A stretch of 64,000 nucleotides of DNA from an uncultured Gammaproteobacteria bacterium. GTDB lineage: Bacteria > Patescibacteriota > Microgenomatia > UBA10105 > UBA927. Positions 40,009 to 58,254 of the stretch are shown piece after piece. The notes under the pieces are model-generated. The model had not been told where the DNA came from. It worked only from the letters and a program-made list of their open reading frames with translations, and ran no database searches. Where the stretch lies: NCBI GenBank assembly GCA_964445435.1, contig CAYUKU010000002.1, positions 47,988 through 111,987 on the forward strand. The letters are read 5' to 3'. Made by a program: the position numbers and the translations under genes. The first letter of the stretch is position 1, and each line of letters starts with the position of its first letter.

Positions 40009-41622
40009 ATGCGCAGGTTGCCTATTTGGGACATTCTTGCAATCATCATCATCGTGATCGGTATCGGTATCCGCCTGAGCCGTCTTGATATTCCCTTTGA
40101 CCCTGAAGATGTCCACCTGGATTATCTGGCTGCCCATCATATGGTCCGGTATGGCGAGATTCCATGGAGCGGATCGGGGAATCCGATCCTCATTGACAGC
40201 CCGCTGTACTACTACATCGTCGCGTTTTTCGTACGAATCTACGATTCACTGTTTTTCCTGGCAGTTGCCAATATCACGGTTATTCAGGGTATAACGTTTG
40301 CGCTTATGTACCGCATCGCAAGTGTTCTTTTTAACCGCAGGTCAGGCGTACTGACGCTTCTTTTTGCGGTCTTCAGCCACGAATACATCGCACAGGGAGC
40401 ATACTTCTTCCAGACGCACGTGATGCAGGTGTTTGCAAACGGGGCACTGTTATTTCTCCTTCTTTTTCATGAACGGAAACATATCCGGTTTGCGTATGCA
40501 AGCATTCTCTCGTTTGTCGCGGCTTTGACGATTCATCATTCACTCCTCGCGCTTGCGCCGCTATATGCAGTGTTTCTGTTTGCAGGCATCAGGAGTAAGA
40601 ACAAAGGGCGTACTGCGGCGGCTCTTATAGGTGTGGCGCTTGGGGTGTTCGTGTTTTTCCATATACCTATTGCCATGCTCATCTGGAAGGATCCTTCAGT
40701 CGGAGAGCGTATCGCGGGAACATTTGCCGCCGGATTCGTCGGATCGTTCGCCGAGTTTGGGGAGAAACTTGCACGAAACGCGGCACAGTTTGTGTACGCA
40801 TTTTCTCTTCGTTGGGTGAAGGAAGCAGCTACGGTAAACGGGATTCTCGCAGGAACTCTTGTGGGAAGCTTCGTATTGTTTCTCCGGCACAATAAGCATG
40901 ATAAGCGGATGATGCGGCTGGTTGCGGCTGTCTTTGCACTCATCATTCAACTTGTCGTGATTGCATCACTTCTTCGCACGGGTGTATGGAATTTTACCTT
41001 CTCGTCACTCTTTGGCCTCTATCTCGCGGTCGTTTCGGCCGCAATCGTCCGGTGGCTTGAGGGATCGAGAACCGAACGGGCGATAGGATGGGGCATAGTG
41101 CTTCTCACTTTGTATGCGTTTTCCAACGGATTTTCCTTCATGATCCCTTCTCAGTATCCCCCGTTCTACCGGTGGAATATCACGAAGGATTCGTTGGCCG
41201 CAGTGGCCCGGACGGTACAGGAAGTGAGGGTGGCGGAAAAAAGAAGCGATGTTTCGTTTTTCCGGATCGAGCGGGTACACAAAAAGCCGGAAGGCGGGTT
41301 CTATGTCGATGTCTATTCAAAAAACCGCATTCAGGTGATAGAAGATATCCTGTATTGGCCCCAGTTGGAGAATATGTTCGCCACCCGTTTCGTCCGCATG
41401 GAGAAGGACGGCACGTTCCCCACGATTCTCAACGGGGATGATTTCGTCTTCGTCATCTGCGACTCGACGCGCGCCCCATTTGCCGGTGTGAACGACTGTA
41501 TAACACGGTATCTGACTGAAAAACCGCAGTATTCGTACGAACGGATTATTTATGAACGGTATCCGATAACGATTTTCCTCGTGCGGCGCAACGGGAAAGA
41601 TTTAGCGGCCGTAAAAATTTGA
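40009..41622 (+). CDS. Polytopic membrane protein, paralog of the membrane domain of the TPR fusion gene
   Basis: It shares D.E.....L..H.M.(Y)gEiPw.G....L.SPLYYY and downstream helices with the N-terminal domain of 37336-39969. The two genes are divergently transcribed with a 39-bp spacer. Confidence 0.7.
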   Translation: MRRLPIWDILAIIIIVIGIGIRLSRLDIPFDPEDVHLDYLAAHHMVRYGEIPWSGSGNPILIDSPLYYYIVAFFVRIYDSLFFLAVANITVIQGITFALMYRIASVLFNRRSGVLTLLFAVFSHEYIAQGAYFFQTHVMQVFANGALLFLLLFHERKHIRFAYASILSFVAALTIHHSLLALAPLYAVFLFAGIRSKNKGRTAAALIGVALGVFVFFHIPIAMLIWKDPSVGERIAGTFAAGFVGSFAEFGEKLARNAAQFVYAFSLRWVKEAATVNGILAGTLVGSFVLFLRHNKHDKRMMRLVAAVFALIIQLVVIASLLRTGVWNFTFSSLFGLYLAVVSAAIVRWLEGSRTERAIGWGIVLLTLYAFSNGFSFMIPSQYPPFYRWNITKDSLAAVARTVQEVRVAEKRSDVSFFRIERVHKKPEGGFYVDVYSKNRIQVIEDILYWPQLENMFATRFVRMEKDGTFPTILNGDDFVFVICDSTRAPFAGVNDCITRYLTEKPQYSYERIIYERYPITIFLVRRNGKDLAAVKI

Positions 41623-43276: not shown

Positions 43277-43470
43277 CCGTGACGGCATGTGTGCCTATCG
43301 GTTATTACGAAGAACAGATATCGGTGAGTGGCTTCGAGTTTCTTTTCGGAGACTGGGAGCCACTCATCGTGAGGGTGGTCATCACACGTAAGGAGCAATG
43401 GGGGAAAGGAATTGAATCGGTTAAGAGTAACAACAAGCGGGACAAACGTCCCGGGAAGGAAGAAGACACA

Positions 43471-44502
43471 ATGGCTACAACAACCAAGAAAAGCCACCCG
43501 AATGCGCTGTTTATCGTCCAACGGTTCGCGCTGTTTGCTGTCGCGGTGTTAGCGGTCGGTTCAATCTTTCTGGCTACCGTGCAGGCACAGGTTCCCAACC
43601 TCCCGCCCGCCGGTCCGGTGAGTGAGACCACGGCAACGCCCAGCGCGACGCCAACCGAGACGGTGACGCCAACGTTCACACCAACCGTCACGCGCACGCC
43701 CGCGCCCACGCTCATCCCGTGTCCGCCCGTAGGACAGCCGACCAGCTTTGGAGAAATCCAGGTGGTCTTCCATGAGGCTGTCCCCTCAAAGGCTTGCCAC
43801 TACGTCTTGCTCTATGCCGAGCTGACGAGCGACGAGTTTGCCGAGATGGGAATTGCGACCGGACCGGTTGAAATCGCCGTTTTCGCGACGGTCGATGCCA
43901 TCACGGAGTACGTCTACGAGACAGCCCGTCTCGCAGGCTGCAATCCTGATGACAAAGAGATCATCCGGTCTCAATGGATTCGCGGAGGCGCAATGGTCAC
44001 CAAGGGTGCCGTGTTCCTGCGTGAGGGCAAAGTTGAAGCGTCATTTGACATCGCGAGCCACATCGCGGGCGAAGTCACTCAGGCGACCATGATCAACATT
44101 CTTGGCTCTTGCCAGCTCAAGTGGCAGGTGCCGGATTGGTACGCGCATGGATTGTCGGAGTACCACATGGAGGTCTTCACCAACGAGTGGGGATTGAAAC
44201 CCTGGGAGGAGGATCTCTATAAGTGTCGCTATCGCCTTGAGCAGCTCAAGCCAGGAGAAGAATGTATCTATATGGAGGCTCAGATGGCTTTCCATCTCCT
44301 GAGAGAGTTGTCAGGCGCTGATCGCGGCATGGACGTGATTATTCAAATGAGCAAAGGAAAAAGTTTCAACACGGCGTTTTACGACGTGTACGGCTTATCC
44401 GTTTCGGACTTTTCCAATGCTTTTGATGAATACCGCGCCCACGGGTACAGACTGGCGCCTACGTCCACACCATCGACGCCACCGTCGGGAGACGGAGGTT
44501 AA
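43471..44502 (+). CDS. Secreted or anchored hypothetical protein with a Thr/Pro-rich linker
   Basis: ATG at 43471 preceded by GGAAGG. N-terminal hydrophobic anchor, a TPTxT-rich segment, then a ~250-aa globular domain with several Cys. Confidence 0.6.
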   Translation: MATTTKKSHPNALFIVQRFALFAVAVLAVGSIFLATVQAQVPNLPPAGPVSETTATPSATPTETVTPTFTPTVTRTPAPTLIPCPPVGQPTSFGEIQVVFHEAVPSKACHYVLLYAELTSDEFAEMGIATGPVEIAVFATVDAITEYVYETARLAGCNPDDKEIIRSQWIRGGAMVTKGAVFLREGKVEASFDIASHIAGEVTQATMINILGSCQLKWQVPDWYAHGLSEYHMEVFTNEWGLKPWEEDLYKCRYRLEQLKPGEECIYMEAQMAFHLLRELSGADRGMDVIIQMSKGKSFNTAFYDVYGLSVSDFSNAFDEYRAHGYRLAPTSTPSTPPSGDGG

Positions 44503-44598: not shown

Positions 44599-45153
44599 AT
44601 GGACGTGCAACAGTCTCAAGCGATACCATCCACTCCCGTTCAACCCGTGGCTGCCCAGCCGACCTCGGTTTCTGTTCAGGCACAGCCTCTGAATCCCTCC
44701 CAACCTGTCCAACCGACAACTACCGTTCAGCCTCCGAAGCGCAAAAAGGGTCCGTGGTGGATCTTCGTTCTGGCAATTTTCATCCTCGCGGGAGTCGGAG
44801 GGTATTTCTTATTGCCAAGTAGCAGTATCGTCATCCCGAGTCAGCCTGCCGGAAGTACATCGATCCATGTGACGAAGCTCGATCTTGCCAAGCCGGGGTG
44901 GCTTCTTATTTCCCGCGTGTCTGTCACCGAAGGAGTTGAGGAAATTGCTGTATCTGCGTACCTTGAGCCGGAGGAGTATACGGAATTTGACCTACCCCTC
45001 ATGGATGACTCAGAACCGCTCCAAACTGGATATTTCCTCTACGGGACGCTGTATGAAGATACCGACGGAGGCGAGTATTTCGATAGCAAAGTGGATCAGC
45101 CGATGAAGGATTGGCTCGGCCGGAAGATTCGGACGACATTCCGCGTACTGTGA
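44599..45153 (+). CDS. Small membrane-anchored protein, member of a 4-copy local paralog family
   Basis: Pro/Gln-rich N-terminus, one TM helix (WWIFVLAIFILAGVGGYFLL) and a ~100-aa C-terminal domain. That domain is homologous to the C-termini of 45907-46323 and 47598-48008 (shared D.P..D.FGRkI...F.v ending). Confidence 0.6.
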   Translation: MDVQQSQAIPSTPVQPVAAQPTSVSVQAQPLNPSQPVQPTTTVQPPKRKKGPWWIFVLAIFILAGVGGYFLLPSSSIVIPSQPAGSTSIHVTKLDLAKPGWLLISRVSVTEGVEEIAVSAYLEPEEYTEFDLPLMDDSEPLQTGYFLYGTLYEDTDGGEYFDSKVDQPMKDWLGRKIRTTFRVL

Positions 45154-45157
45154 TACT

Positions 45158-45862
45158 TCAATAAATGGTAGCCTCGGGGAGCATCTCTTTTAGTGTCGCG
45201 TAATAAGATGGTTCTATGGGATTCCCACCCAGGAAAAGAAATTGGAGTTTCGTGAGGTTGCGTAGTGTATCCGGCAGTCGGGAAATTTTATTGTTGCGAA
45301 GATCCAGAGATGTGAGGTTGGTGAGATTGCCTATGGATGGAGGAATTTCAGTCAGCATATTATTGCTGAGCGTAAGCTTCGTAAGCGCAGTGAGATTTCC
45401 CATTTCGTCAGGCAAGATGGCAATAGCATTATTTGATGCATCCAAAAGTTCGAGATCCCGAAGATTAGCTATCGAAGGGGGAAGTGTCGTTATGGGCGTT
45501 CCGCGGATGGTAACGGAGGTAAGTGCCGTAAGTTGACCGATTTCTTCAGGGAGCATCGAGAGTTGTGTTCCGTCGATAGTCAATTTCCTGAGGTTGGTAA
45601 GTGTCGCTATTTCGGGAGGGAGTGTCGCAAGGTTATCTTCTTGGGAGATAAACAGATCCGTCAGAGACGGGTTGCTTGTAACAAACGCCACAAAATCATC
45701 TGCGGCTTTCGTCGGGGGTGCATGTTTCGCGATAGCCACAGGAGCGCCTGAATTCGTCCGTGTCATAGCAAGCAGGTGAGGAATAAGCTGTACCACGCTT
45801 AGGGCAGCAACAAGGACAGAGAGCACGAGAAAGGCAGTAAGAATGAGGCGTTGCTGTGTCAT
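45158..45862 (-). CDS. Leucine-rich repeat protein with an N-terminal signal anchor
   Basis: About seven 23-24-aa LRRs (LxxLxxLxLxxNxLxxLPxxIGNLTxL). The C-terminus ends ...PSYYATLKEMLPEATIY. Confidence 0.85.
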   Translation of the reverse strand: MTQQRLILTAFLVLSVLVAALSVVQLIPHLLAMTRTNSGAPVAIAKHAPPTKAADDFVAFVTSNPSLTDLFISQEDNLATLPPEIATLTNLRKLTIDGTQLSMLPEEIGQLTALTSVTIRGTPITTLPPSIANLRDLELLDASNNAIAILPDEMGNLTALTKLTLSNNMLTEIPPSIGNLTNLTSLDLRNNKISRLPDTLRNLTKLQFLFLGGNPIEPSYYATLKEMLPEATIY

Positions 45863-45906
45863 TTGACGTATCTAGTATAGCATGTCACACTGGAAGGGAA
45901 ATTCGT

Positions 45907-46323
45907 ATGTGGATTGCCATCATGGCCGCATGGTTTGTTACATTAGCCTCACAGGGCGGGAGGTGGTACCTGGAGCATAATTCCATTGCAGTGCATGATC
46001 AGTTGATTGGCGAATCAGTCGAGATAGACACGATCCGTGTTCCGGGGCCTGCGCTCCTGGTCATTTCAGGATCAGTGTACGGAAAGCCGCTTCTCTCCCA
46101 GCATTTGGGAACAGTGGAGTTTTTCAAAGGCGGGACCTACCGGGCGGTTCGGGTTCCTATTTCCACGAGCTCGATGGCAAAAGAACAAGCGAAACTTGAA
46201 GGCAGTATTTCACAGGGCAATCTTGTCTATGCTGTGCTATATAGGAAAAATGCACGAAATGAAGAAAAAGAGAAACGAGATATATTCGGAAAACTTATCG
46301 CAAAGCCGTTTCGCCTCAATTAA
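45907..46323 (+). CDS. Small membrane-anchored protein, paralog of 44599-45153
   Basis: TM helix MWIAIMAAWFVTLA and a C-terminal domain homologous to the other small family members. Confidence 0.5.
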   Translation: MWIAIMAAWFVTLASQGGRWYLEHNSIAVHDQLIGESVEIDTIRVPGPALLVISGSVYGKPLLSQHLGTVEFFKGGTYRAVRVPISTSSMAKEQAKLEGSISQGNLVYAVLYRKNARNEEKEKRDIFGKLIAKPFRLN

Positions 46324-47052
46324 CTAAAAATACACTTCAGTTTGCGGAAGCATGGTTCGGATGCGCGACTGTTCTTCCGGGGAAATTTGGTTTGCACCCA
46401 GATACACTTTTTTGAGCGTCCCAGCGAGTCTGGTCATCGTCGAAGGAAGGCTCTTGAGACTATTTTTGCGCGCGTCGAGGACGGTGAGCGAGGAGAGATT
46501 GCCAATTGTTTCTGGAAGCGCAGTCAGACGGTTATCGTAGATATGCAGTGTCGTGAGAGCAGTAAGGTTGCCGATCGCATCAGGAAGCCGTGTTATATCG
46601 TTGCCCCCTAATTTCAGAATCTGCAAATGCACCAGATTTCCGATGCTCTCAGGAACGGAGGTTAAGCGCTGGTCCTGTACCTGAAATCTCGTAAGCGAGG
46701 TTAATTTTCCTACATCTTCGGGAATATCTGTTACGTTTCCATGAATAACGCCAACGCGCGTGATGCGGGGGAACGACAAGAGGGCGTCGACCGGAAGATT
46801 ATTTATGTTACAAACCGACGAGTAATCGATTGTGGTGACAAGGGGGAGTTTTTGGGCAACTGATCGCGTTGATCTGTCCACATTACGATCAAATTTGCCT
46901 CCGTCTTCACAGTATTGTGTCGGATCAAATGCCATCTGCCGTGCGACCGGCTGGGAAAGGAGCGCTCTTCCCAGAAGTATCCCGGACAGGATAGATATGC
47001 CATAGATAAAAAGCCGGTATTTGAGGCTGGAGGCTCTTGTATGTGGACGCAT
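46324..47052 (-). CDS. Leucine-rich repeat protein, paralog of 45158-45862
   Basis: LRR units IGNLTALTTL..., IGNLSSLTVL.... The C-terminal tail PEEQSRIRTMLPQTEVYF resembles the other LRR protein. Its stop codon abuts the convergent gene with no spacer. Confidence 0.85.
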   Translation of the reverse strand: MRPHTRASSLKYRLFIYGISILSGILLGRALLSQPVARQMAFDPTQYCEDGGKFDRNVDRSTRSVAQKLPLVTTIDYSSVCNINNLPVDALLSFPRITRVGVIHGNVTDIPEDVGKLTSLTRFQVQDQRLTSVPESIGNLVHLQILKLGGNDITRLPDAIGNLTALTTLHIYDNRLTALPETIGNLSSLTVLDARKNSLKSLPSTMTRLAGTLKKVYLGANQISPEEQSRIRTMLPQTEVYF

Positions 47053-47063
47053 AAGTACCTGCT

Positions 47064-47594
47064 ATGATTATAGCAGTGAACAGGATTGCACAGTATCAAT
47101 GGACGAGGCTGGAAACGATGGGAATATTTCTGATCCCGCTCATAATCGTGGGAATAGTATGGTTTATCAGATACATGGATAAGCCGTCCCAACGAATATT
47201 TGGCTACGGCGGTTTCCGGCCCGAATTAAACCATGTGACGAAGCGTTGGGAGGTGCCTGTTGGTCAAGTGGGGAATCCAGGCATACCGGCAGGAGTGATA
47301 CGCTTCATGGAGATAAACGGATTTCTTGTTATGGATGCGCAATTTTCGAAAACGATATCTTCCGCGCCGCTTGCCGTATGGGTGCATGAAGGGACGTGTA
47401 AGATGCAAGGTAAGCTCCGTTATACTCTGGCTTCTGTCGTGCCTGGTTCTTCGGTCTGGTGGACGAGTTTATATGAGTTTCCCTGGTCACGGCTGATTGC
47501 GCAGCAACCCCTCGCGCTAACATTCCGGGAAGCGCAGCAGCCGGAGCGTATACTCTATTGTGGTGATGTACAGATGAATGAGGACTCCGAGTAG
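47064..47594 (+). CDS. Small membrane-anchored hypothetical protein
   Basis: Hydrophobic helix MGIFLIPLIIVGIVWF near the N-terminus. The ORF lies between the LRR gene and the next small paralog. Confidence 0.45.
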   Translation: MIIAVNRIAQYQWTRLETMGIFLIPLIIVGIVWFIRYMDKPSQRIFGYGGFRPELNHVTKRWEVPVGQVGNPGIPAGVIRFMEINGFLVMDAQFSKTISSAPLAVWVHEGTCKMQGKLRYTLASVVPGSSVWWTSLYEFPWSRLIAQQPLALTFREAQQPERILYCGDVQMNEDSE

Positions 47595-47597
47595 ATT

Positions 47598-48008
47598 ATG
47601 AAAATGTGGATACTTGCATCCATGCTGTTTTTGGCGAGTGCCATACTGTCTTCGTATATAACGATACGACGGTCTCAATTCGAGTTAGTGGTCAACGATC
47701 AACCCGTCGGCACAACGATTTTTATACAGAGACTTGTGCTTTCGCGCGCAGGGTATATCGTAATCACCCCTCAGACCGGCAGACCGGATCGCGACGTACC
47801 ATCAGTGTCTGACTACATGCCCGCAGGTGTCTACACGGATTTCAACGCAGATATTTACTGGGGCGATGAGCTTGATGTGCCTGCTTCTACACTGGTCACC
47901 GTCCGGATTCACTCGGATAACGGAGATGTATACTATGATCCTGCATTTGATCTGCCGGTTCGCGATAAATTCGGACGTATATATGAAAAAACGATTACAC
48001 TTCAGTAA
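47598..48008 (+). CDS. Small membrane-anchored protein, paralog of 44599-45153
   Basis: Signal anchor MKMWILASMLFLASAIL. The C-terminal domain ...DFNADIYWGDELDVPASTLVTVRIH...DPAFDLPVRDKFGRIYEKTITL aligns with the other family members. Confidence 0.55.
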   Translation: MKMWILASMLFLASAILSSYITIRRSQFELVVNDQPVGTTIFIQRLVLSRAGYIVITPQTGRPDRDVPSVSDYMPAGVYTDFNADIYWGDELDVPASTLVTVRIHSDNGDVYYDPAFDLPVRDKFGRIYEKTITLQ

Positions 48009-49137
48009 CGTACTGGCCCTTTTTTTGTGCGCTGTGGGAGCAGGATTTGTCTTCAGGTTGGTGTTGCATCACCAGGCAGCGTCAAGTACAGGAAGCGCCG
48101 TGCGGAGTTTGTTTGCCTTATGCGCGCGGGCAGAGGTACCGTTTGACTACGATTGCCTGCGTCGGGGAATGCTTCCGTTAGTCACGGAAGATACGCTCAT
48201 GGATGTGTTGGGAGTCCTTCAGGATGTGTTTGCCCAACCCAACGTTTCCCTCAAGACGCACGGCGCGCTGACGTGTCATCCATCCGGTCACGTTGCAGGG
48301 GAGATTGCGGTTGAGAAGGGGATTGAGTTCTCACGCGTGTCCACGCTGTGCGGTGCCATCTGCGACTACGGATGTGTGCATGGAGCGCTTGTAGCGACGC
48401 TACGGCATGACCATGAGTTTTTGGCGAAGGTCGGATCGTTGTGTGATGCGTTTCGGGCATCAGAAACCGTGCGGCAGATGTCAGCCTGTGGTCACGCCGT
48501 CGGCCATGGTCTTGCTGAGGTATTCGCTTCTGATTTTCCAAACGCCCTTGCGTACTGCGACAAATTTCAGAACGAATCTGTCCGCTCTGCATGCGGACAG
48601 GGGAGCATGATGGAGCACTTGATCGGGTTGCCGGACAGGCCAAAAAATATGAACCTCCTGTTGGATGACATACTGTCCTTTTGTGGCGGGCTTGCCGGCC
48701 GGTACAAAGAAGAATGCTTCGATAACGTCGGAACATATGCCGGACACGTGACTCAGGATGTTTTTGAAGCAAAAAACATATGCACACGAGTTCCGTCCTC
48801 CTCACGTATGAAATGCGTTCAGTCGTTGGGCGGTGTCGTTTATTACCAATTTCAGCATTCACCGCTGGCATTGAGCGCCTACTGCACATCGATGGGAGAT
48901 GCAGCAAGTCTTGCATGTATACTCGGGGCCATAGATACGAGCGTCGGCGAGTCCCGCAGCATGGAGTATGGGCGTATCCTCTGCGAGCAAATGAGGGGTA
49001 CAACGCAAAAGCGTTGTTTTGCGTATTACGGCACTCAAGTTGCTTCATCATGGGGAAGCGCAGTGCAAAAAGAAAAGTGCAGCCAGCTCAATAATGAGAA
49101 TGCCAGTGCGTGCAATTCCGGAAAGGATTCGTTATGA
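47983..49137 (+). CDS. Cys/His-rich repeat protein family, member 1 (secreted or anchored)
   Basis: Start MKKRLHFSNVLALFLCAVGAGFV overlaps the upstream ORF by 26 nt. It contains successive ~35-aa units, each with a Cys followed by aromatic/His-Gly: CHPSGHVAG, CGAICDYGCVHG, CGHAVGHG, CGQGSMMEH. Confidence 0.75.
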   Translation: MKKRLHFSNVLALFLCAVGAGFVFRLVLHHQAASSTGSAVRSLFALCARAEVPFDYDCLRRGMLPLVTEDTLMDVLGVLQDVFAQPNVSLKTHGALTCHPSGHVAGEIAVEKGIEFSRVSTLCGAICDYGCVHGALVATLRHDHEFLAKVGSLCDAFRASETVRQMSACGHAVGHGLAEVFASDFPNALAYCDKFQNESVRSACGQGSMMEHLIGLPDRPKNMNLLLDDILSFCGGLAGRYKEECFDNVGTYAGHVTQDVFEAKNICTRVPSSSRMKCVQSLGGVVYYQFQHSPLALSAYCTSMGDAASLACILGAIDTSVGESRSMEYGRILCEQMRGTTQKRCFAYYGTQVASSWGSAVQKEKCSQLNNENASACNSGKDSL

Positions 49138-50036
49138 GGAAGCGGCTGTTGCTTTTGGTTGCGCTTGTCGGAATCATGGGTTTTTCCGCATTAGAAATGG
49201 AACGGCGCAACGAGCATAAGCCGATCATTATGACGAATCGGGACGCAAAACGTGTCCGGGTGCAGATAGACAGAATTATGCGAAACAAAGGTCCAAAGGA
49301 TGCGTACACATATGCGAAAACTCTTTTTCCGTATGACAGATCCTTCGTGTCTCAACATCTGGTGCTCCACATATTTTCGGAACTTGCATATGCCAGATAC
49401 GGGAGACACGGCTTGAATTTTTGCGATAACGATTTCGCGTATGGCTGTCTTCATGGGTTTCTTGCGCAGATTATTGTGCACGAAGGGCTGGATAATGCAA
49501 AAGAGCTCTTCGCAGAATGTCGCAACCAGGCAAATGAGATTGCCTGTCAGCATGGAATCGGCCATGGAATCATGCAGTATCTGGGTGGGCGAAACATCCG
49601 CAGTGGACTTGATACCTGCGTGCGGATCGGTGCTGAAATTTCGGCAAAGGGGTGTTTCGGAGGGGCGTATATGGAGTATCATTTTCCGACGCTCACAACT
49701 GGGGGGGTGGAATCGGCTGTTCCGTTCGATCCGGATAATCCGTATGATATTTGCCCAGGACTCCCGGATTCCTATAAACCGTCCTGCTATTTCCGACTTG
49801 CCGAGTGGTGGGAAGAGATTCTCAGGAAAGATTACAAAAAGATGGGGAATTTATGTTCAAAGATCGGGAACACGGAGTATATGGCACAGTGTCTCCGTGC
49901 CATAGGTGCAACAGCTACGACAACGAGTGGGCATGACAAGAGTTTGGTCGCGTACATATGCAGCCAGGCGACACAATCACCAAACTATCGAGATATATGC
50001 CTTGAGGGATTCGATATGGAGGATCCGGGGAAGTGA
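49134..50036 (+). CDS. Cys/His-rich repeat protein family, member 2
   Basis: ATGA overlap with member 1. Signal anchor MRKRLLLLVALVGIMG. Motifs FCDNDFAYGCLHGF, CQHGIGHG, CFGGAYMEY. Confidence 0.75.
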   Translation: MRKRLLLLVALVGIMGFSALEMERRNEHKPIIMTNRDAKRVRVQIDRIMRNKGPKDAYTYAKTLFPYDRSFVSQHLVLHIFSELAYARYGRHGLNFCDNDFAYGCLHGFLAQIIVHEGLDNAKELFAECRNQANEIACQHGIGHGIMQYLGGRNIRSGLDTCVRIGAEISAKGCFGGAYMEYHFPTLTTGGVESAVPFDPDNPYDICPGLPDSYKPSCYFRLAEWWEEILRKDYKKMGNLCSKIGNTEYMAQCLRAIGATATTTSGHDKSLVAYICSQATQSPNYRDICLEGFDMEDPGK

Positions 50037-50037
50037 A

Positions 50038-51177
50038 TTACGACTTCCAGATGTTGTGGACAAGGACGCCCTCAACGAAATAGTTGTGTTCTGCTCCAGG
50101 GAGGCTCAGGTTGTAAACCGGCGGATTTTCGTCGACCGCGACTACAGATTCTACTGTCACTGCGTTTCCGTCCGGTCCCAGAAGCGTATCGCCCGCTCTA
50201 ACTGCGTCTGCACGAAGCCACAGGCCGCGGTTTGCGACCCAGAGGTTATGGCCTTTCGTGACTCTCAGTGTACCGTTAATAACCAAGTATCCTGCTTCCT
50301 GCGACTCAGGATCTGCAGATGGACTCGGGTGGGCAAGAAGTGCTGTCACTGTGTTGGGAACCAATTTGCCCGTAGAAAGATTGTAGGATAAAACGACGTC
50401 TCCCGGACGGATATCCTGAATTTCCTTCATCGTGCCGTCGGCCATGAGCACCCTAGAACCGGCGAGGAAGCATCCGCCGTAGCTGCCATATGATGCCTGG
50501 CCGTAGCCGTAATAGCCAGCCTGACCGTAACCGTAGCTGTATGAGTAGTAGGCGCTTTGCGCGTAGCCGTAATATGCAGCCTGACCGTAGGCGTAGCTAT
50601 ACGCATAATAATTGCTTTGGCTGTAGGTGTAATAATTGGCCTGACCGTAGGCGTAGTATGTGGACTGAGCGTAGGAGTAGCAGTTGTTGGTCAGTGTTCC
50701 ATCACTCGGATCACAATCAGCCGTCGTTGTTTTCATGAGTCCCATGCGTCGGTAGCCGGATGCAGTGGATGAGCGTCGTGGGTAGTTCGTATCGTCCGTC
50801 CAGTCGTTGACCCAGCCGTCTGCGTCGTTATCATAGATCCAAATGCCGCCGCCGGGGAGAAGCTGTCCGCTTCCGATGGCGATTCCGCCGGAACCGTTGA
50901 TGATAAATTGTCCAGCGACGATCTTCTGACCGGACGAAAGTGTCAGATTATAATTACCTAGCGTGATGGAGCCGGTGTTTGACGTACCCGTTTCAGAGTT
51001 TTGCGGATTATCGACACCATCCACGGTATAGGCAAACGTGCATGATGCGGTAAGCGTGATATTACCATATGTCGTTGTCGGGCGGGCACAGTCAGCCAAA
51101 ACACGCTCCTGTGGCATAAGCACGAAAAGGAAAAGAAGAGCGAGAAACGAGCCGATCGTTGAGAGACCTTTTTTCAT
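50038..51177 (-). CDS. Secreted protein with a Tyr/Gly/Gln-rich repeat tract and a C-terminal Hint (Hedgehog/intein-like, BIL-type) domain
   Basis: Start MKKGLSTIGSFLALLFLFVL (ATG at 51175-51177). Hint block A CFLAGSRVLMADGTMKEIQDIRPGDVV, block B TKGH (TxxH), and a C-terminal ...VEGVLVHN followed by only IWKS. A Tyr-rich low-complexity region lies upstream of the Hint domain. Confidence 0.8.
   Translation of the reverse strand: MKKGLSTIGSFLALLFLFVLMPQERVLADCARPTTTYGNITLTASCTFAYTVDGVDNPQNSETGTSNTGSITLGNYNLTLSSGQKIVAGQFIINGSGGIAIGSGQLLPGGGIWIYDNDADGWVNDWTDDTNYPRRSSTASGYRRMGLMKTTTADCDPSDGTLTNNCYSYAQSTYYAYGQANYYTYSQSNYYAYSYAYGQAAYYGYAQSAYYSYSYGYGQAGYYGYGQASYGSYGGCFLAGSRVLMADGTMKEIQDIRPGDVVLSYNLSTGKLVPNTVTALLAHPSPSADPESQEAGYLVINGTLRVTKGHNLWVANRGLWLRADAVRAGDTLLGPDGNAVTVESVVAVDENPPVYNLSLPGAEHNYFVEGVLVHNIWKS
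50470..50700. repeat. Tandem ~45-nt degenerate direct repeats that encode the Tyr-rich tract (YAYGQA-YY-Y-QS)n
   Basis: Recurring gcctgaccgta(g/a)(g/c)cgtag(c/t)t and gtagccgtaata blocks are visible on the plus strand. Confidence 0.5.
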
Positions 51178-51178
51178 A

Positions 51179-51709
51179 TTATCTGAACGCGAATCCCCCG
51201 TTATATGTGGCGTCCTGCCCGACGAGCGTAAAGTCAAGGTAATACGTCTCCTCATGGGTGTCATCCGCAGTCAGGGTTGCCTGCCAGGTTCCATTCGTAT
51301 CCGTTCCCGCCGTGCGGGTGAAGGTAAGCGGTGTTTTTTTCGTATCGGTATCGAGCCTTGCTGTTACGGAGGTTATGGGAGTAGTGTAGGTTGCCTTAAC
51401 CGTAATGGTTTGTTTGGCTCCGACTTTCACATCCAAAGGATCGAGTGCGAATTCATAGATTTTCGGTCCCACTGCCTTGGGTCCGGGGGCGAAGGTAAAC
51501 GTTTCCTTCCCAGGATTGAGCTTGCGGGGTTTCGGTTTCGGAGTAGGGGTGCCTGATGCCATGGCGATTTCTTTTTCCTCTTTCGGCGTCCCCATGAACC
51601 AATTAGTTCCCTTCTGGGAGACGATATACCATCCGAGCAAAACGACGACAACGATTCCGACAAGGAGAGCAGTATTAGAAGATTGCTTCGTGGACTTGGA
51701 CTTTTTCAC
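51179..51709 (-). CDS. Membrane-anchored hypothetical protein (beta-sandwich-like), co-transcribed upstream of the Hint protein
   Basis: GTG start, TM helix ALLVGIVVVVLLGWYIV, a Pro/Lys-rich linker and a Thr-rich beta-strand domain. Its stop lies 1 nt before the Hint gene start. Confidence 0.55.
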   Translation of the reverse strand: MKKSKSTKQSSNTALLVGIVVVVLLGWYIVSQKGTNWFMGTPKEEKEIAMASGTPTPKPKPRKLNPGKETFTFAPGPKAVGPKIYEFALDPLDVKVGAKQTITVKATYTTPITSVTARLDTDTKKTPLTFTRTAGTDTNGTWQATLTADDTHEETYYLDFTLVGQDATYNGGFAFR

Positions 51710-51841: not shown

Positions 51842-53032
51842 ATGAAGTGGAAACGAATGTATTCCGTAGCACTCGTTATTTCTCTCCTGCTTATCGGTAT
51901 TGCAAGGTACGCTCTTTTTCCTCGTGATTCCTATCCCGAAGTGCGGGAGCTTGCCGGAAAATCCCTCGATTTCGGAGAGCTAAGCGTTTTTTTCACCCGT
52001 CTTGCACAGGCGAAGGGCGCTTCATACGCATTTGAGGTTCTCCGTATTGCGACACTCCCGCCCAATACGGACATGCATCTTCTGGGGCACGTGGTGGGCG
52101 ATGAGCTCTATAAACAGCAGGGGATAAACGGCATGAGCGCCTGTACGCAGGATTTCCGCAACGCGTGCTCCCATTCCATCGTTGTCGGATATTTTCTTGC
52201 AAAGGGTGAAGAGGGGTTAGGAGATATTGCCAACGCCTGCAGACGCGCGCCGGGAGGCGCAGGCGCCTACACGATGTGTTTCCACGGTCTTGGTCACGGG
52301 ATACTGGCGGCGGTAGACTATGACCTGCCGCGGGCCGTGTCTCTTTGCCAAAAGACCGGGACGATTCAATACGGATACCGTGAGTCGTCCGAATGCACGA
52401 GCGGTACCGTCATGGAAATTATCTCCGGCGGGTTTCATAACAAGACGCTCTGGGAGAAACAGTCCGCGAAATATCTATCCCTAAGCGAGCCGCTTCTGCC
52501 GTGCACTGCCAGTTACGTGCCAGCAGGATCCAAGCCCCAATGTTTCGAGTATTTGACGCCGCATCTGGTGAAGGCGGCAGGCGGATCGCTGGATGACGGC
52601 GTGCCGGCAGATGAAATCCTTAAAAAGGCATTTGCATATTGCGAACTGCTCGATATCGATATCCAGCGCGCATTCTGCTACCAGGGATTCGGCAAGGAGT
52701 TCATCGTTCTGGTTCATAATCGCGATACGCGGACGCTCGCCAACATGGATGAACGGGAAATGAAAGAAACGTTTCGCCTGTGCGCGCTTGCGGGGCGTGC
52801 GCAGGGGGAGCGGGAGTGTCTGCTTCATGCGATGGATTCGCTTTTCTGGGGAGGAGAGAATGACCCGACAGGCGCAGTCCGGTTTTGCGCGCTTATGGAA
52901 TCAGAGACGCTTGCCAAGGCATGTTACGAGCATCTTGTGGGGGCGACCAGATTTTTCCTGAAAGATCCTCACGCCCGCGATCCCGTGTGTAAGATAATCC
53001 CAGGTGCGTACCAAAGAGACTGTTATGAATAG
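51842..53032 (+). CDS. Cys/His-rich repeat protein family, member 3
   Basis: Signal anchor MKWKRMYSVALVISLLLIG. Motifs HLLGHVVG, CTQDFRNACSHS, CFHGLGHG, CTSGTVME, CFEYL. Confidence 0.75.
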   Translation: MKWKRMYSVALVISLLLIGIARYALFPRDSYPEVRELAGKSLDFGELSVFFTRLAQAKGASYAFEVLRIATLPPNTDMHLLGHVVGDELYKQQGINGMSACTQDFRNACSHSIVVGYFLAKGEEGLGDIANACRRAPGGAGAYTMCFHGLGHGILAAVDYDLPRAVSLCQKTGTIQYGYRESSECTSGTVMEIISGGFHNKTLWEKQSAKYLSLSEPLLPCTASYVPAGSKPQCFEYLTPHLVKAAGGSLDDGVPADEILKKAFAYCELLDIDIQRAFCYQGFGKEFIVLVHNRDTRTLANMDEREMKETFRLCALAGRAQGERECLLHAMDSLFWGGENDPTGAVRFCALMESETLAKACYEHLVGATRFFLKDPHARDPVCKIIPGAYQRDCYE

Positions 53033-54503
53033 AAAAGCCTTCATAAGTATAGTCATGGCAGTGTTGGTTTCGGCGGCGTGGGTGTTTTTGTTCAAGGGTA
53101 TGGTGATGGGCGCAAGACGCGTCATCGAATTGAGGAAAAACGGATATTACCCCAAGAGTCTCACGATTCGGGTCGGGGAGACCGTGACGTTTGTCTCGCA
53201 GACCGGAAAACCGTTCTGGCCCGCCTCAAACGTGCACCCGAGCCATGGATTGTACCCCCAATTCGATCCGCTCAAACCCGTTTCTCCCGATACGCCCTGG
53301 CAGTTTACCTTCGACCGGCCGGGCAAGTGGCGGTTCCATGACCATATTGCGCCTGAGTTTACGGGGACGATTTTCGTTCTGCCCCAGGGGAAAACGACAA
53401 TTGATGCGCTTCCGTGTCAGGAGAAAAATATTGACCTTACCGTCAAGGAGCAGTGCTGGGAGGATGAGCTTGGCGATGCGCTGGAAACGAAAGGGATAAA
53501 AGCGGCCTTCACTGAATTCGTCCGTCTGTATCAGACAGATGCGGATTTCGTAACCACGGGATGTCACGTCCACGCGCACAGAATAGGCGACAAATTTTAT
53601 GAGACCTACGCGTCGGGGTTACAAACGCTTGCCGGTATCGAGCTTCCGCCTGAGACGATGTCGTGCGGGTACGGATTTTTCCATGGATTGTTTGAACACT
53701 TCTTCCGAAAACACCCCAATATCGCGCTTGCCCGGTCCGTTTGCGAAGATTTGGATAAACGCTACAGCAAAACGATCCCTCTTATCCGCATCAACTGTTT
53801 CCATGGAGCCGGTCATGGATTGATCGCCGATCCGCCCGACCCTGCATCATGGGGCAAGCCGCAGGATCTCGTGGGGAAGCCATTGTCGCTGTGTGAGAGC
53901 ATATCTCCTGTTGAGTCTGAAGCATACGCCTGTATGGACGGCGTATTTAACGTCGTTTCAAGCTGGATGGGAGATGCGAAGTACGGTATGTCCATCGACA
54001 TGAAAAATCCGTTTTGGCTTTGCAAGACGCTCAAGTCCACGCAGCAGGAGTCCTGCTATTATGAGCAGATTATGGTGATGAGCGAGTTTGATAACCGCAA
54101 CATGACGACGATTACGAACAAATACATCACACCCATCGTCAACAAGGATATAGCCAATCGGGTGATGTTTTCTCTGGCCGCCTCCCTCATGCAGAAGGAC
54201 GTTGTCCTGCCGGATCAGACGCACATGATCCGTGCATGCCGCAGTGTGCCAGGGTATCTACAAAAGAGTTGCCTGGAGGGAGTGGTCAACGGATTTAAGG
54301 GTCACGGTGAACCGGGGAAAGAATACGTGAAAATGCTTGCGTTTTGCCAGAATTCGCTTCTCACCCGCGTCGAGCGTGATACGTGTTACCTCTCGCTTAT
54401 TGATGCGATATGGGATTTGAATCCACAGCAGGAAGCGCTTGGGGTCTGCCAAAAGATACCGGATCAGTATAGAGCGCAGTGCGAGCAATGGGAGAAACGG
54501 TGA
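53004..54503 (+). CDS. Cys/His-rich repeat protein family, member 4, with an N-terminal cupredoxin-like domain
   Basis: TM helix followed by LTIRVGETVTFVSQTGKPFWPASNVHPSH...WQFTFDRPGKWRFHDHIAPEFTGTIFV, an amicyanin/plastocyanin-like strand pattern in which the ligand Cys is replaced by Asp. The family repeats follow: CHVHAHRIG, CGYGFFHG, CFHGAGHG. Confidence 0.75.
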   Translation: MRTKETVMNRKAFISIVMAVLVSAAWVFLFKGMVMGARRVIELRKNGYYPKSLTIRVGETVTFVSQTGKPFWPASNVHPSHGLYPQFDPLKPVSPDTPWQFTFDRPGKWRFHDHIAPEFTGTIFVLPQGKTTIDALPCQEKNIDLTVKEQCWEDELGDALETKGIKAAFTEFVRLYQTDADFVTTGCHVHAHRIGDKFYETYASGLQTLAGIELPPETMSCGYGFFHGLFEHFFRKHPNIALARSVCEDLDKRYSKTIPLIRINCFHGAGHGLIADPPDPASWGKPQDLVGKPLSLCESISPVESEAYACMDGVFNVVSSWMGDAKYGMSIDMKNPFWLCKTLKSTQQESCYYEQIMVMSEFDNRNMTTITNKYITPIVNKDIANRVMFSLAASLMQKDVVLPDQTHMIRACRSVPGYLQKSCLEGVVNGFKGHGEPGKEYVKMLAFCQNSLLTRVERDTCYLSLIDAIWDLNPQQEALGVCQKIPDQYRAQCEQWEKR

Positions 54504-55675
54504 TTATGGAAAAAAACGTGTTTCCGTTTAAGACAATCAGCATTTTCATTATCGGGGTTATCGTTCTTGTGGAAGTCGGACTGATCGTCTCTGAAAGGCT
54601 TGCGAAATCACCCTGCGCGGGGAAAGAAGGAACGGAGCTGAAAAACTGCTGGGAGACTGTTGTAACCGGTCACCTCAAAAAAGGAGACATATCCGGGGCA
54701 TTCGAGTCGCTTGCAACTCTTTATGAAACGACGCCGGCTTTGGGTGAAACATGCCATAGTCTGACCCATGAAATCGGACGGTCGGCGTATGAACTTTTCT
54801 CACGCGGGGTCGAATTTGATATTACCGCCAAAACTGCATACTGTTCTTACGGCTTCTACCATGGGTTCATGGAGGAGCTTGTCATACGACGTGCGGACAT
54901 GAAGCTTGCGCGGGAGTTTTGCGCGTACGTCGACAAGCAACTGGCAAACGTAAGTCCTGACGTGACGCTTCAGTGTTATCACGGTATCGGGCACGGGACG
55001 GTCAATAATCACGATCCGCGAACATGGGGGGAGCCGCAGCGTCTCATCGATCCCGCGTTGGCTCTGTGTGAACAGGTGGCAACCAATCAGGAGGAGCTCT
55101 CCCGGTGTGCGACCGGTGTGTACAACGGGTTGTCTATTTTTTATGCAACAGGGGAGTATGGACTTCTCCTCGATACGAAGGATCCGGTGGGTGTGTGCAG
55201 GCGGCAGAAGGTAGAGTATCAGGATGCCTGTTATGTGAGCATGAATACGCTTCTTTTACAGGTTGCCAATTATGATCTACGCAAAGCAGTCTCGTATATC
55301 GAGAACATACCGGATGACGCCATCGCCCAGCATACGATGATAAATCTCGCGTCCCCCATAGGGACGAGAAATCTGGGTACATTGGATCACAGCGAGACCA
55401 TCGGAGTCTGCAGGGCACTGCCAAGCCGCCTGAAACTGGCGTGCATCCAGGGGTATGCGTTCGGGTTTCTCGAACATGGGGAACCGGAGAAAGAATACAG
55501 AAAACCTCTCGCATTCTGCGGATCCCAACAGCTTGTCAAAGAAGAGCAAAAAGCATGTTTTGAGTATATTTTGTCGTATCTGCCAAGATGGTACGCCAAA
55601 GAGAAAGTTTCGGGGATTTGCCAAACGGTTTCATCAGAGTGGCGTGATTATTGTGAAAAACAAATACAAAATTAG
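54479..55675 (+). CDS. Cys/His-rich repeat protein family, member 5
   Basis: Motifs CHSLTHEIG, CSYGFYHGF, CYHGIGHG, CATGVYNG. Confidence 0.75.
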   Translation: MRAMGETVIMEKNVFPFKTISIFIIGVIVLVEVGLIVSERLAKSPCAGKEGTELKNCWETVVTGHLKKGDISGAFESLATLYETTPALGETCHSLTHEIGRSAYELFSRGVEFDITAKTAYCSYGFYHGFMEELVIRRADMKLAREFCAYVDKQLANVSPDVTLQCYHGIGHGTVNNHDPRTWGEPQRLIDPALALCEQVATNQEELSRCATGVYNGLSIFYATGEYGLLLDTKDPVGVCRRQKVEYQDACYVSMNTLLLQVANYDLRKAVSYIENIPDDAIAQHTMINLASPIGTRNLGTLDHSETIGVCRALPSRLKLACIQGYAFGFLEHGEPEKEYRKPLAFCGSQQLVKEEQKACFEYILSYLPRWYAKEKVSGICQTVSSEWRDYCEKQIQN

Positions 55676-57062
55676 CGGGATCGTCGGTATAATTCTGTTT
55701 CTTTTGGGAATCGGGGGATTAAGCATCCGACATGCGTATACCAAAACCATTACGCTTGATGATACCGGGTTCCATCCGAAAGTCGCTCTCGTTGTCAGGG
55801 GTGAAAGCATCACATTTCGAACTTCGCGGGGGAAATACTTCTGGCCAGCGAGCGACCCGCATCCGATTCATGCGACATATCCTGAATTTGACCCAAAAGA
55901 GGCCCTGAAAAAAGACGCCGTATGGACGTTTACATTCGACCGTGTCGGGATATGGAGCTATCATGACCACTTGGCTCCGCAGTTTGGCGGACGGATTATC
56001 AGTCTGGGATGGGACGCCAGGGAGTTCGCGCAACTGGTGCAGTCGGCCCGGAAAAAAATCTCCGGTTTCATCCCGCTGACTGTCACAGAGATGGAGGCGT
56101 ATTTCGGACAGTGCGGGGGACTCAATAAGGATTGCTGGGATCCCGTCTTTACTTCCATCGTAGAAACCAAAGGAACCAAACAAGCCCTGGAGACGGTTTC
56201 ATACTTGAGACAGAAATATCCGGAGTTTGCCAATTACTGCCATCAGTATACTGACTTCATCGGTGAGATATCGTATTGGAATATCCTCCCCAAAAAGCGA
56301 CTCCCGCAGTTTAACGCTGCTCTTGCAGGTCAATGCAGCAGCGGGTATATGCACGGATATATGGGTGAATTTGTTTCGCACGGGAGCATCGGACAGGGGA
56401 TTGCGTTTTGTGATGCGTTATTCAGACTCGCCCCTGACCACGAAGTGACTGCCGAGTGTTATCGCGGGGTCGGAAACGGCCTTGCCTTCCGGTTCGGACT
56501 CACGTCATGGAACGACGAGGATGCGATTATCAACGAGGCGCTTGGGGTGTGTGAATCGGTACGGGAGAAAAAACTTTGCGAACAGGGAGTCATCATCGGT
56601 CTTGATCATATGTACTTCGGCGTGCACGGGTTTCAATTGCGGATGGATCCCAAAGACCCGTTTGCAGTATGCCGTCGGGTAAAAACGGAACTTACTGATG
56701 ATTGTTACGAGCAGTTGTCCGACGGATTTTTCGCGTTTGTGGAATCTGATTTGGATAAAGCGATGCCGTATGTAAAAAAACTTCCACCCAAACAGGCAGC
56801 AATCGTCATCGCAAAGATCATACAAATTCCGTATGAACTTGAGTCGTTTGGCGCGAATGGATACGCGAGGATTGTCGCATGGTGTCGCAGCGTGCCGTAT
56901 GGTCTTGGCCAGACGTGTTTACGAGGGTTTATCGGAAAATTGAAAACAATCGATGTGGATTATAATGGGCATACGACAATAGCAGAGAATTTTTGCCGCA
57001 TGCCGATACTTACCGCGGAAGAAGAGTGGTTTTGCCGTAGGGTCGTCTATGAACAAATATAA
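55644..57062 (+). CDS. Cys/His-rich repeat protein family, member 6, with an N-terminal cupredoxin-like domain
   Basis: Probable GTG start at 55644 or 55653, overlapping the upstream stop. Cupredoxin-like segment ITFRTSRGKYFWPASDPHPIH...WTFTFDRVGIWSYHDHLAPQFGGRII. Family repeats follow: CHQYTDFIG, CSSGYMHGY, CYRGVGNG. Confidence 0.7.
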   Translation: MIIVKNKYKISGIVGIILFLLGIGGLSIRHAYTKTITLDDTGFHPKVALVVRGESITFRTSRGKYFWPASDPHPIHATYPEFDPKEALKKDAVWTFTFDRVGIWSYHDHLAPQFGGRIISLGWDAREFAQLVQSARKKISGFIPLTVTEMEAYFGQCGGLNKDCWDPVFTSIVETKGTKQALETVSYLRQKYPEFANYCHQYTDFIGEISYWNILPKKRLPQFNAALAGQCSSGYMHGYMGEFVSHGSIGQGIAFCDALFRLAPDHEVTAECYRGVGNGLAFRFGLTSWNDEDAIINEALGVCESVREKKLCEQGVIIGLDHMYFGVHGFQLRMDPKDPFAVCRRVKTELTDDCYEQLSDGFFAFVESDLDKAMPYVKKLPPKQAAIVIAKIIQIPYELESFGANGYARIVAWCRSVPYGLGQTCLRGFIGKLKTIDVDYNGHTTIAENFCRMPILTAEEEWFCRRVVYEQI

Positions 57063-58254
57063 TTCGTATCGCAGCATTTTCTGGTGGCTTGTTTTTGCCA
57101 TAGGCATTGCGCTTGCCGTTCTCTATCGGATGAATTGGTACGTGCCTACGCCCGGAAGATCTCCGACAGGGGAGGCTGAGAACGTACTGGAGCAGTGCAA
57201 AGGAGCGCAATATCGCCCTGCCTGTTACGAAGCAGAGATTCCGAAGCTCATGGCATATATGTCTATGGAGGATGCGTTCGCCGTAACAAAACTGGTGAGC
57301 GACAAGGATCCGCAGTTTGCCAACTGTCATGTGGTGGCACACAAATTGACCAGTCTTGAGACGCGGAAAGACCCGTCGCGCTGGAAAGATGTGCTTCTTC
57401 GGTGCCCTTCTTCCGTGTGTAATTACGGATGTCTCCATGGGTCAATGATTGAGCGGTTCCGAAGTGAAACGCTTACCGATGAGCAAGTGGAGAAAGTGTT
57501 GCCCGATATAATGGATTTGTGTGAGCCACGGGAGGGCTTCGTTCCATCAGCAATCGACAAAACCATGTGTTATCACGGCATCGGGCATCTTGCTATGTAT
57601 ATGACCGGCGGCGATCCGGCGCGCGCTATACCCGTGTGCGAGAAAACAGCGGTGCGCAGTGATGGGGCAAACTATCTTTCAACATGCATTGAAGGCGTAT
57701 TTATGACGGTATTTCAGAGCGTGGATTCTGAGGATTTTGCACTTGTGCGGTGGATACGGCCGGAGAAAGGGGACGTGCGGAGTTTCTGCTCCCGATACGG
57801 GCAATATTGGCAAATGTGCCGTCGCGAGTCGTTTCCGCTTTTTGACGATGAGTCGATGAAAAAGGCCAGCGGACTTGAGAAATTCTGTTCCTATGCCACG
57901 ACCCCGCAGGATATGAGAAGCTGTTATTGGGGCGGGATCAATGTCATCAGCACCCGGTTTTTCGAGTTGGGCGGCGGCATTTCTGATGTCGATTCGTACT
58001 GCAAAGGTTTTAGGGTTGAGACACAGGGATTATGCTATGGAGGTGTCGCAATGCGCCTTGTCCAGATAGATCCGATAAGAAATGTACAAATTGCAGACAC
58101 CATTTGTGCTCTGGCAAGAGATGCTGCCCGATTGGAGTGTTACAACAACTTGTTGTATTACGCGACGTTTAGCTTCAACACAGGAAGCCAGGAGTTTCGG
58201 ACGTATTGTGCACAGTTATCGGGTGACTGGAAAGAAGCATGCCTAAACCAATGA
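57049..58254 (+). CDS. Cys/His-rich repeat protein family, member 7
   Basis: Motifs CHVVAHKL, CNYGCLHG, CYHGIGHL, CIEGVFM. It overlaps the previous gene by 14 nt. Confidence 0.75.
   Translation: MNKYNSYRSIFWWLVFAIGIALAVLYRMNWYVPTPGRSPTGEAENVLEQCKGAQYRPACYEAEIPKLMAYMSMEDAFAVTKLVSDKDPQFANCHVVAHKLTSLETRKDPSRWKDVLLRCPSSVCNYGCLHGSMIERFRSETLTDEQVEKVLPDIMDLCEPREGFVPSAIDKTMCYHGIGHLAMYMTGGDPARAIPVCEKTAVRSDGANYLSTCIEGVFMTVFQSVDSEDFALVRWIRPEKGDVRSFCSRYGQYWQMCRRESFPLFDDESMKKASGLEKFCSYATTPQDMRSCYWGGINVISTRFFELGGGISDVDSYCKGFRVETQGLCYGGVAMRLVQIDPIRNVQIADTICALARDAARLECYNNLLYYATFSFNTGSQEFRTYCAQLSGDWKEACLNQ

Follow-up and report, generated by a model that had tools for sequence, protein, structure and literature searches.

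Six genes at positions 44599-48008 were analysed within a 64,000-nucleotide stretch of DNA (contig CAYUKU010000002.1 of assembly GCA_964445435.1, positions 47,988 to 111,987; hereafter the window). In the list of open reading frames (ORFs) they follow the order A(+), L1(-), B(+), L2(-), C(+) and D(+), and the lengths of all six products are identical in the public gene calls for the 147,622-bp NCBI contig. L1 and L2 encode leucine-rich repeat (LRR) proteins, A, B and D encode small proteins of the Pfam family DUF7282, and C encodes a small protein of a separate family. The interpretation put forward here, for which the chances are about even, is that their products together make up a membrane-tethered LRR/beta-sandwich binding module, encoded in a conserved cell-envelope island. 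The surface location of the six proteins is well supported; we infer their extracellular orientation, a physical partnership between them and the binding of a ligand. The alternation of LRR genes with genes for small anchored proteins, noted in a preliminary description of this DNA, was borne out, with the ORFs lying where that description had placed them.

The preliminary description had also proposed that three of the four small proteins share a C-terminal domain. Comparisons by Pfam, BLASTP and hhalign upheld this and matched the domain to DUF7282 (PF23951). Protein A (44599-45153, + strand; 184 aa) scored 29.3 bits over residues 76-174 and protein D (47598-48008, +; 136 aa) scored 30.2 bits, both above the gathering score of 27, and the two proteins aligned with each other by BLASTP at 24% identity over 125 aa (E = 3e-9). 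Protein B (45907-46323, +; 138 aa) is more divergent, with a DUF7282 score of 20.2 bits (E = 7e-4) that lies under the gathering score and no BLASTP match to A or D. When a profile of B and two orthologues was compared with the A/D profile by hhalign, the two aligned over 126 columns with a probability of 99% (E = 2.7e-18), and B and its orthologues ranked near the top of an exhaustive DUF7282 profile search. By these sequence comparisons A, B and D are all assigned to DUF7282. The alignment showed an insertion in the B group, in which the acidic D-x-D/N-G loop seen in both A and D is absent. The start codon of B is most likely the ATG at 45907 rather than the GTG at 45856, the public gene call being of 138 aa. 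Calcium binding by the acidic loop of A and D was considered and dropped, as the strict motif was present in no more than 15 of the 50 small members of the family and in none of the B group.

The structure model of D was a confident beta-sandwich, resembling carbohydrate-binding module (CBM), Bap and FN3 domains in a generic immunoglobulin (Ig)/FN3-like manner. One strong N-terminal hydrophobic segment was found in each of A, C, D, L1 and L2 (Kyte-Doolittle mean of 1.9-2.9 over 19 residues). In A it forms a single transmembrane segment (residues ~51-79), preceded by a Pro/Gln-rich N-terminal tail of ~50 aa ending in KRKK and followed by the DUF7282 ectodomain. Four basic residues thus stand immediately before the hydrophobic segment, and a tail of this kind fits an orientation of A with its N-terminus inside and its C-terminus outside. 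D similarly consists of an N-terminal transmembrane helix and a DUF7282 ectodomain. The hydrophobic stretch of B is only ~15 residues long (MWIAIMAAWFVTLA) and is signal-peptide-like. Just upstream of A, a conserved gene at 43279-44502 (+) encodes a protein with an N-terminal anchor and a Thr/Pro-rich linker; its orthologues are ~320-346 aa long. This protein gave only a sub-threshold match to BTRD1, and its orthologue in one related contig (L001, introduced below) matched Peptidase_MA_2 weakly.

An exhaustive HMMER search returned 1,939 cluster representatives of DUF7282 at E ≤ 1e-3, of which 314 were at E ≤ 1e-10. Among the best 145 of the 1,939 representatives, 50 are ≤230 aa long, and an N-terminal hydrophobic segment is present in 47 of these 50; many of the small members carry a Pro/Gln-rich tail like that of A. 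The remainder of the best 145 are multi-repeat proteins of up to 18 domains, in which the partners are PGF-CTERM, the type IX secretion system (T9SS) signal Por_Secre_tail, PPC, CARDB and NosD/beta-helix domains, all of them extracytoplasmic contexts. The proteins A, B and D have in common with the multi-repeat archaeal and bacterial DUF7282 surface proteins a beta-sandwich domain of ~110 aa and an extracytoplasmic setting. Unlike the multi-repeat members, which have tandem arrays together with PGF-CTERM or T9SS signals, they display one domain held by an anchor at the N-terminus, and a Pro/Gln-rich cytoplasmic tail is frequent. A PDB sequence search with DUF7282 gave only a chance-level match to a sialyltransferase, and a search of the literature for DUF7282 or PF23951 returned no paper.

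The two minus-strand proteins, L1 (45158-45862; 234 aa) and L2 (46324-47052; 242 aa), are each composed of a signal anchor, LRRs and a C-terminal cap. For L1 the Pfam matches were to LRR_14 (E = 2.6e-25, 89.4 bits against a cut-off of 40), LRR_4 (81.3 bits) and LRR_8 (72.4 bits), and for L2 to the same three families (LRR_14, E = 1.9e-19, 70.1 bits; LRR_4, 48.0 bits; LRR_8, 57.1 bits), which places both among the LRR proteins. Strictly regular 23-residue units were counted by pattern search, five in L1 and three in L2, giving at least five regular LRRs in L1 and the common repeat consensus LxxLxxLxLxxNxLxxLPxxIGxL. The two proteins were described at the outset as having similar C-terminal tails, and this proved correct: they are 33% identical over 207 aa (BLASTP, E = 1.6e-33) and share the cap L..L.LGGN.I....Y/E....ML P..T.IY(F), with L1 ending in LPEATIY and L2 in LPQTEVYF. 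L2 additionally has an N-terminal cap (QPVARQ.A.DP..YCE ... VCNIN), the two Cys of which are conserved in all L2-type orthologues. The Cys pairs of the L2-type caps and of protein C fit an oxidising extracytoplasmic location.

As bacterial surface LRR solenoids, L1 and L2 are comparable with the Listeria internalins and the Leptospira LIC_11051 family, with weak matches that cover the LRRs only. Identification as internalins was rejected: L1 reached 42 bits for the NCBIfam model internalin_A against a cut-off of 1600 and L2 was not listed, and neither protein has a fused Ig-like domain or a C-terminal sorting signal, both ending in the LRR cap. The corresponding score for LIC_11051 was 76 bits against a cut-off of 1000. 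The proteins differ further from the internalins in their 23-residue LPxxIGxL repeats, and in having an N-terminal hydrophobic anchor and no LPXTG or GW modules. The LRRs of type III effectors (XopAC, XopAE, XopL and SlrP/SspH2) were also considered. The best score, 83 bits where 450 would be required, covered the LRR part only, and L1 and L2, at only 234-242 aa, are N-anchored and have no additional domain.

The arrangement recurs in related contigs. The whole block was found in five others, namely L001 (a contig of a metagenome-assembled genome, GCA_964553825.1), L005, L008 (nearly identical to the window), L016 (on a 494-kb JGI contig) and, in part, L002. It runs in the order PMT_2/TPR, PMT_2, a spermine-synthase-like membrane protein, a protein of ~340 aa, DUF7282, LRR, DUF7282 and LRR, followed by C, D, two Cys/His-rich genes (CH1 and CH2), the Hint gene and then a run of genes of ~400 aa. 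A sixth contig, L011, retains an LRR gene on the minus strand, C, D and one Cys/His gene. Orthologues of A are present in L001, L005, L008, L012 and L016. The search for the LRR and small-protein unit at other sites also yielded three convergent DUF7282/LRR pairs outside the block, in L012, in L015 and at 966-1973 of L002. The pair in L012 continues with a 340-aa gene and a GT2 gene, and that in L002 lies beside an epimerase gene and a YfhO-type gene. After uniform re-annotation with profiles, 12 convergent DUF7282/LRR junctions were counted in eight contigs, with gaps of 4, 0, 2, 0, -27, 12, -4, 4, 0, 1, -4 and -26 nt. The lineage is thinly sampled: homologue searches with D, the DUF7282 alignment and the C alignment yielded four, nine and four proteins, respectively. 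A scan of a genome collection with the D-group alignment found only the L001 contig, and scans of metagenomes found either nothing or the L002 contig only.

In L001, positions 6630-7562 hold two A-type DUF7282 genes in tandem (132 and 153 aa), against a single one in the window. The extra copy is specific to that lineage and arose by duplication of the small gene only, no LRR gene being included.

Comparison of paralogues with orthologues indicated the age of the two pairs. Within the window, paralogues are 18-36% identical, and orthologues elsewhere are 42-78% identical to the window proteins (94-95% in the near-identical L008). For the DUF7282 ectodomain, identity is 41-78% among A types and 31-60% among B types, and 15-28% between types. 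Likewise, L1-type orthologues are 42-50% identical (L001, L005 and L016) and L2-type orthologues 43-63% (L001, L002, L005, L011 and L016), against about 29% between the L1 and L2 types. No DNA-level repeat was detected between the paralogues beyond the 69-nt LRR period. Because paralogues are far less alike than orthologues, the duplication predates the divergence of all sampled genomes. The layout is essentially fixed and the pairs are ancient, and the cassette is not one that is expanding recently or actively. The idea of tandemly duplicated LRR-plus-partner units was thus right as to paralogy and wrong if taken to mean recent expansion.

The two kinds of gene also track each other by subtype. 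A-type genes are matched with L1-type genes and B-type genes with L2-type genes, and a third DUF7282 type, found in L002 and L015 (38% identical), partners a third LRR type (50% identical). Across ten pairs, DUF7282 identity and LRR identity were correlated (Mantel r = 0.69, permutation p = 4e-4). The subtype tracking fits inheritance of the pairs as units, and they were plausibly also duplicated as units.

The basic unit is two tail-to-tail genes, one for a small protein that is N-anchored and carries one DUF7282 domain and the other for an N-anchored LRR protein of ~235 aa. The window contains two anciently diverged subtypes of this pair, A with L1 and B with L2, together with D in an apparent operon with C, CH1 and CH2. 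In the proposed mechanism, each LRR solenoid and its cognate sandwich would be neighbours on the external side of the cytoplasmic membrane, where they may act jointly as a binding module. The sandwich could dock on the LRR protein as a co-receptor or stabiliser; alternatively, a single external ligand or envelope polymer could be contacted by the LRR protein and the sandwich alike. Surface LRR solenoids are used for binding, and in internalins the LRRs are followed by an Ig-like inter-repeat domain, so that LRR and beta-sandwich act together. The proposed pair would be comparable to an LRR-plus-Ig-like architecture of this kind divided between two chains: internalins fuse the two parts, whereas here the sandwich is a separate polypeptide from a convergent gene. 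A membrane-anchored LRR protein with a small, separately encoded beta-sandwich partner is known from TLR4/MD-2 and RP105/MD-1. The likeness of the DUF7282/LRR pair to these is a functional analogy, with no relationship in sequence or specific fold. A difference is that both partners here are themselves membrane-tethered, and contact between them is predicted by analogy only. The 'surface interaction' put forward in the preliminary description is a reasonable prediction from the topology and domain types of these proteins.

Several observations weigh against a joint binding module. The partnership of the LRR and DUF7282 proteins was deduced from conservation of the gene neighbourhood and subtype tracking only, and the Mantel correlation is one that orthology and synteny alone would be expected to produce, so that it is not proof of contact between partners. 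Topology and orientation were derived from hydropathy and charge rules only. No LRR-DUF7282 fusion occurred in the best 145 DUF7282 representatives. A small DUF7282 gene on the 2.7-kb contig L014 has no LRR neighbour, the A-type gene and the L1-type LRR gene of L016 are separated by the spermine-synthase-like gene, and the B-type gene and the L2-type LRR gene of L002 diverge rather than converge. Most of the pair loci come from one syntenic clade and are not independent examples. Finally, convergence precludes co-transcription of the paired genes, and tight junctions of this kind are found genome-wide here.

These points lead to the explanation that ranks next, which we consider somewhat unlikely: that the genes encode independent envelope proteins kept adjacent by slow decay of gene order and by genome compaction, with no joint function. 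The junctions themselves favour it. The convergent pairs abut as first described, with stop codons 4 nt apart for A/L1 and 0 nt apart for B/L2; the divergent spacers are 44 nt (L1/B) and 11 nt (L2/C). The window has eight convergent junctions; the genes abut closely or overlap at six of them (-50, -27, -21, 0, +1 and +4 nt), and only two are wide (163 and 595 nt). With tight convergent junctions this common across the window, abutment at 0-4 nt is real but no distinguishing feature of the cassette, and it is the genome as such that is tightly packed. No terminator-like site was found at the A/L1 or B/L2 junction, and the counts of the promoter and terminator scan were at background. Examples of tight convergent junctions elsewhere in the window are those at 30781-30807, 33747-33796, 41602-41622 and 50036-50038, where there is no room for intergenic terminators. 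That most examples of the pair stand inside one syntenic block is likewise what gene-order inertia would give. It accounts less well for the persistence of the pair outside the block, by the GT2 gene in L012, in L015 and in L002, and for the maintenance of three distinct subtype pairs. Gene order is moreover not frozen, as L002 and L016 are rearranged, yet LRR and DUF7282 genes remain adjacent.

The genes upstream of the cassette suggest a second alternative. Over ~30 kb immediately upstream, the window encodes sugar-nucleotide enzymes, GT2 proteins and PMT_2/TPR glycosyltransferases, and the neighbourhood also includes the spermine-synthase-like membrane protein and the Hint-domain protein. 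The anchored proteins could be substrates or accessory factors of this adjacent glycosylation and envelope-assembly machinery, serving as glycoprotein components of the surface layer that it builds or as its organisers, and not ligand-binding receptors. The link from PMT_2 through the spermine-synthase-like protein and the 340-aa protein to DUF7282 is kept in L001, L005, L008 and L016; the ectodomain linker that follows the anchor of A is Ser/Thr/Pro-rich; and a multi-repeat DUF7282 protein of haloarchaeal type has PGF-CTERM, the anchor signal of surface glycoproteins. The stand-alone pairs in L015 and L002, on the other hand, have no directly adjoining PMT_2 genes, and LRR domains are typically binding modules. 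Glycosylation of the proteins themselves is only hypothesised, and overall we regard this alternative as unlikely.

A third alternative arises from gene C and the genes that follow it. C (47064-47594, +; 176 aa) encodes an N-terminal transmembrane helix and an ectodomain that was modelled as a Greek-key beta-barrel like that of Cu/Zn-superoxide dismutase (SOD), the closest likeness being to SOD and CCS domain 2. The model was of moderate confidence (predicted local distance difference test score, pLDDT, 72; five sequences). C is more than an odd fourth member of the small proteins; it represents a separate, SOD-fold family. It falls outside DUF7282 (hhalign probability of 1.5% against the DUF7282 profile), and it had no match in Pfam, Sod_Cu (PF00080) included, even at E ≤ 1, nor in NCBIfam or among PDB sequences. 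In the six C orthologues the invariant residues are G, C, Y, W, R, P, L, A and D only. No His is invariant among them, and the two invariant Cys, in the motifs G.C and C[AG]D, probably form a structural disulfide. Both the Sod_Cu sequence profile and the His/Asp ligands of Cu/Zn are therefore missing from C, which from its model is a SOD-fold protein without a catalytic metal site. In this respect it can be compared with Bacillus subtilis YojM, with other SOD-like proteins that lack full metal sites and with CCS domain 2; it differs in having no conserved His at all and no detectable sequence similarity to Sod_Cu, its likeness in fold resting on the moderate-confidence model.

C and D are closely linked to the two Cys/His-rich genes. 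D starts 3 nt downstream of C and overlaps CH1 (47983-49137, +; 384 aa) by 26 nt, the start of CH1 being judged from its 384-aa orthologue in L008. The stop of CH1 is in turn overlapped by 4 nt by the start of CH2 (49134-50036, +; 300 aa), which is convergent with the Hint gene, their stops lying 1 nt apart. The 3-nt spacing and the 26- and 4-nt overlaps suggest that C, D, CH1 and CH2 form one translationally coupled operon. As C and D are coupled to the Cys/His genes, the six-gene cassette is therefore not self-contained, contrary to how it was first delimited. CH1 and CH2 have paralogues in nine successive ORFs that lie downstream of the Hint gene (51842-62604, +; BLASTP E down to 3e-46). 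Together these make a family of 11 N-anchored members in which C...C and GHG motifs recur and for which, CH1 included, neither Pfam nor NCBIfam gave a match; the run is syntenic in L001, L008 and L016.

It could be supposed from this that the proteins, or at least those of the C-D-CH1-CH2 operon, handle Cu or Zn at the cell surface, with DUF7282 as an accessory. The SOD/CCS-domain-2-like fold of C and the motifs of the Cys/His family are in keeping with such a role, as is a weak match of one downstream L001 orthologue to Cupredoxin_1. The composition of C described above speaks against it, no Cys or His is conserved in the DUF7282 columns, and the LRR partners would be left unexplained; a role in metal handling is accordingly very unlikely.

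That the genes form a recently expanding or hypervariable tandem cassette, or a mobile, defence or toxin module, is the least probable reading by far: the adjacent paralogous units, the nearby PT-HINT-type domain and the extra A-type copy in L001 are outweighed by the low identity of paralogues relative to orthologues, by a layout that is the same in genomes with about 40-60% protein identity, and by the negative searches of PADLOC-DB (ten proteins in or beside the cassette) and of phages, plasmids and viral contigs, on account of which the defence and mobile readings were rejected.

With the membrane-tethered binding module retained as the favoured reading, a more specific version of it can be stated, in which each DUF7282/LRR pair would form a cognate two-chain receptor for adhesion or recognition, duplication of entire pairs having given rise to three or more types of specificity. 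We hold this to be unlikely. If true, it would amount to a prokaryotic split analogue of LRR-plus-Ig receptors on an uncultured, probably small-genome bacterium, and DUF7282, an orphan family of about 1,900 sequence clusters, would acquire a first function, that of an LRR co-receptor. On present evidence the system is ordinary, a group of anchored surface paralogues located in a conserved island of envelope genes, and its mechanism is one that we infer from gene context only. As far as was searched, the conserved two-gene LRR/DUF7282 arrangement is undescribed; its parts and its general type are familiar, and the module, though real and located at the cell surface, does not amount to a system of a new kind. 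Its value lies in the conserved, subtype-matched partnership with LRR proteins, which is a concrete and testable lead to the function of DUF7282, and in naming candidate surface recognition proteins for an uncultured lineage.

The Hint gene beyond CH2 (50038-51264, -) encodes a Hint/PT-HINT protein with a long low-complexity stretch rich in Tyr, Gly, Ala and Ser (YYAYGQANYYTYSQ...). The protein terminates where its Hint domain does, lacks any toxin domain beyond that point and is conserved in L001, L008 and L016. No tRNA, Rfam match or marker gene was found in the window. The related contig L004/L001 (CAZKLT010000004.1, GCA_964553825.1) was deposited as 'uncultured Gammaproteobacteria bacterium', a label that could not be verified. 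The PMT_2/TPR fusions, the many orphan anchored proteins and the tight packing are not an obvious fit to it. The GC skew is positive in all 2-kb bins of 1-64000 regardless of gene orientation, and the cumulative skew climbs to 3.1. At the other end of the window, a giant ORF at 3-8051 (+) encodes at least 2,682 aa; it is open from position 3 of the window and may begin before it. Apart from a match to Fic/DOC (E = 2.5e-7) and a borderline one to YkoP, this ORF is unannotated.

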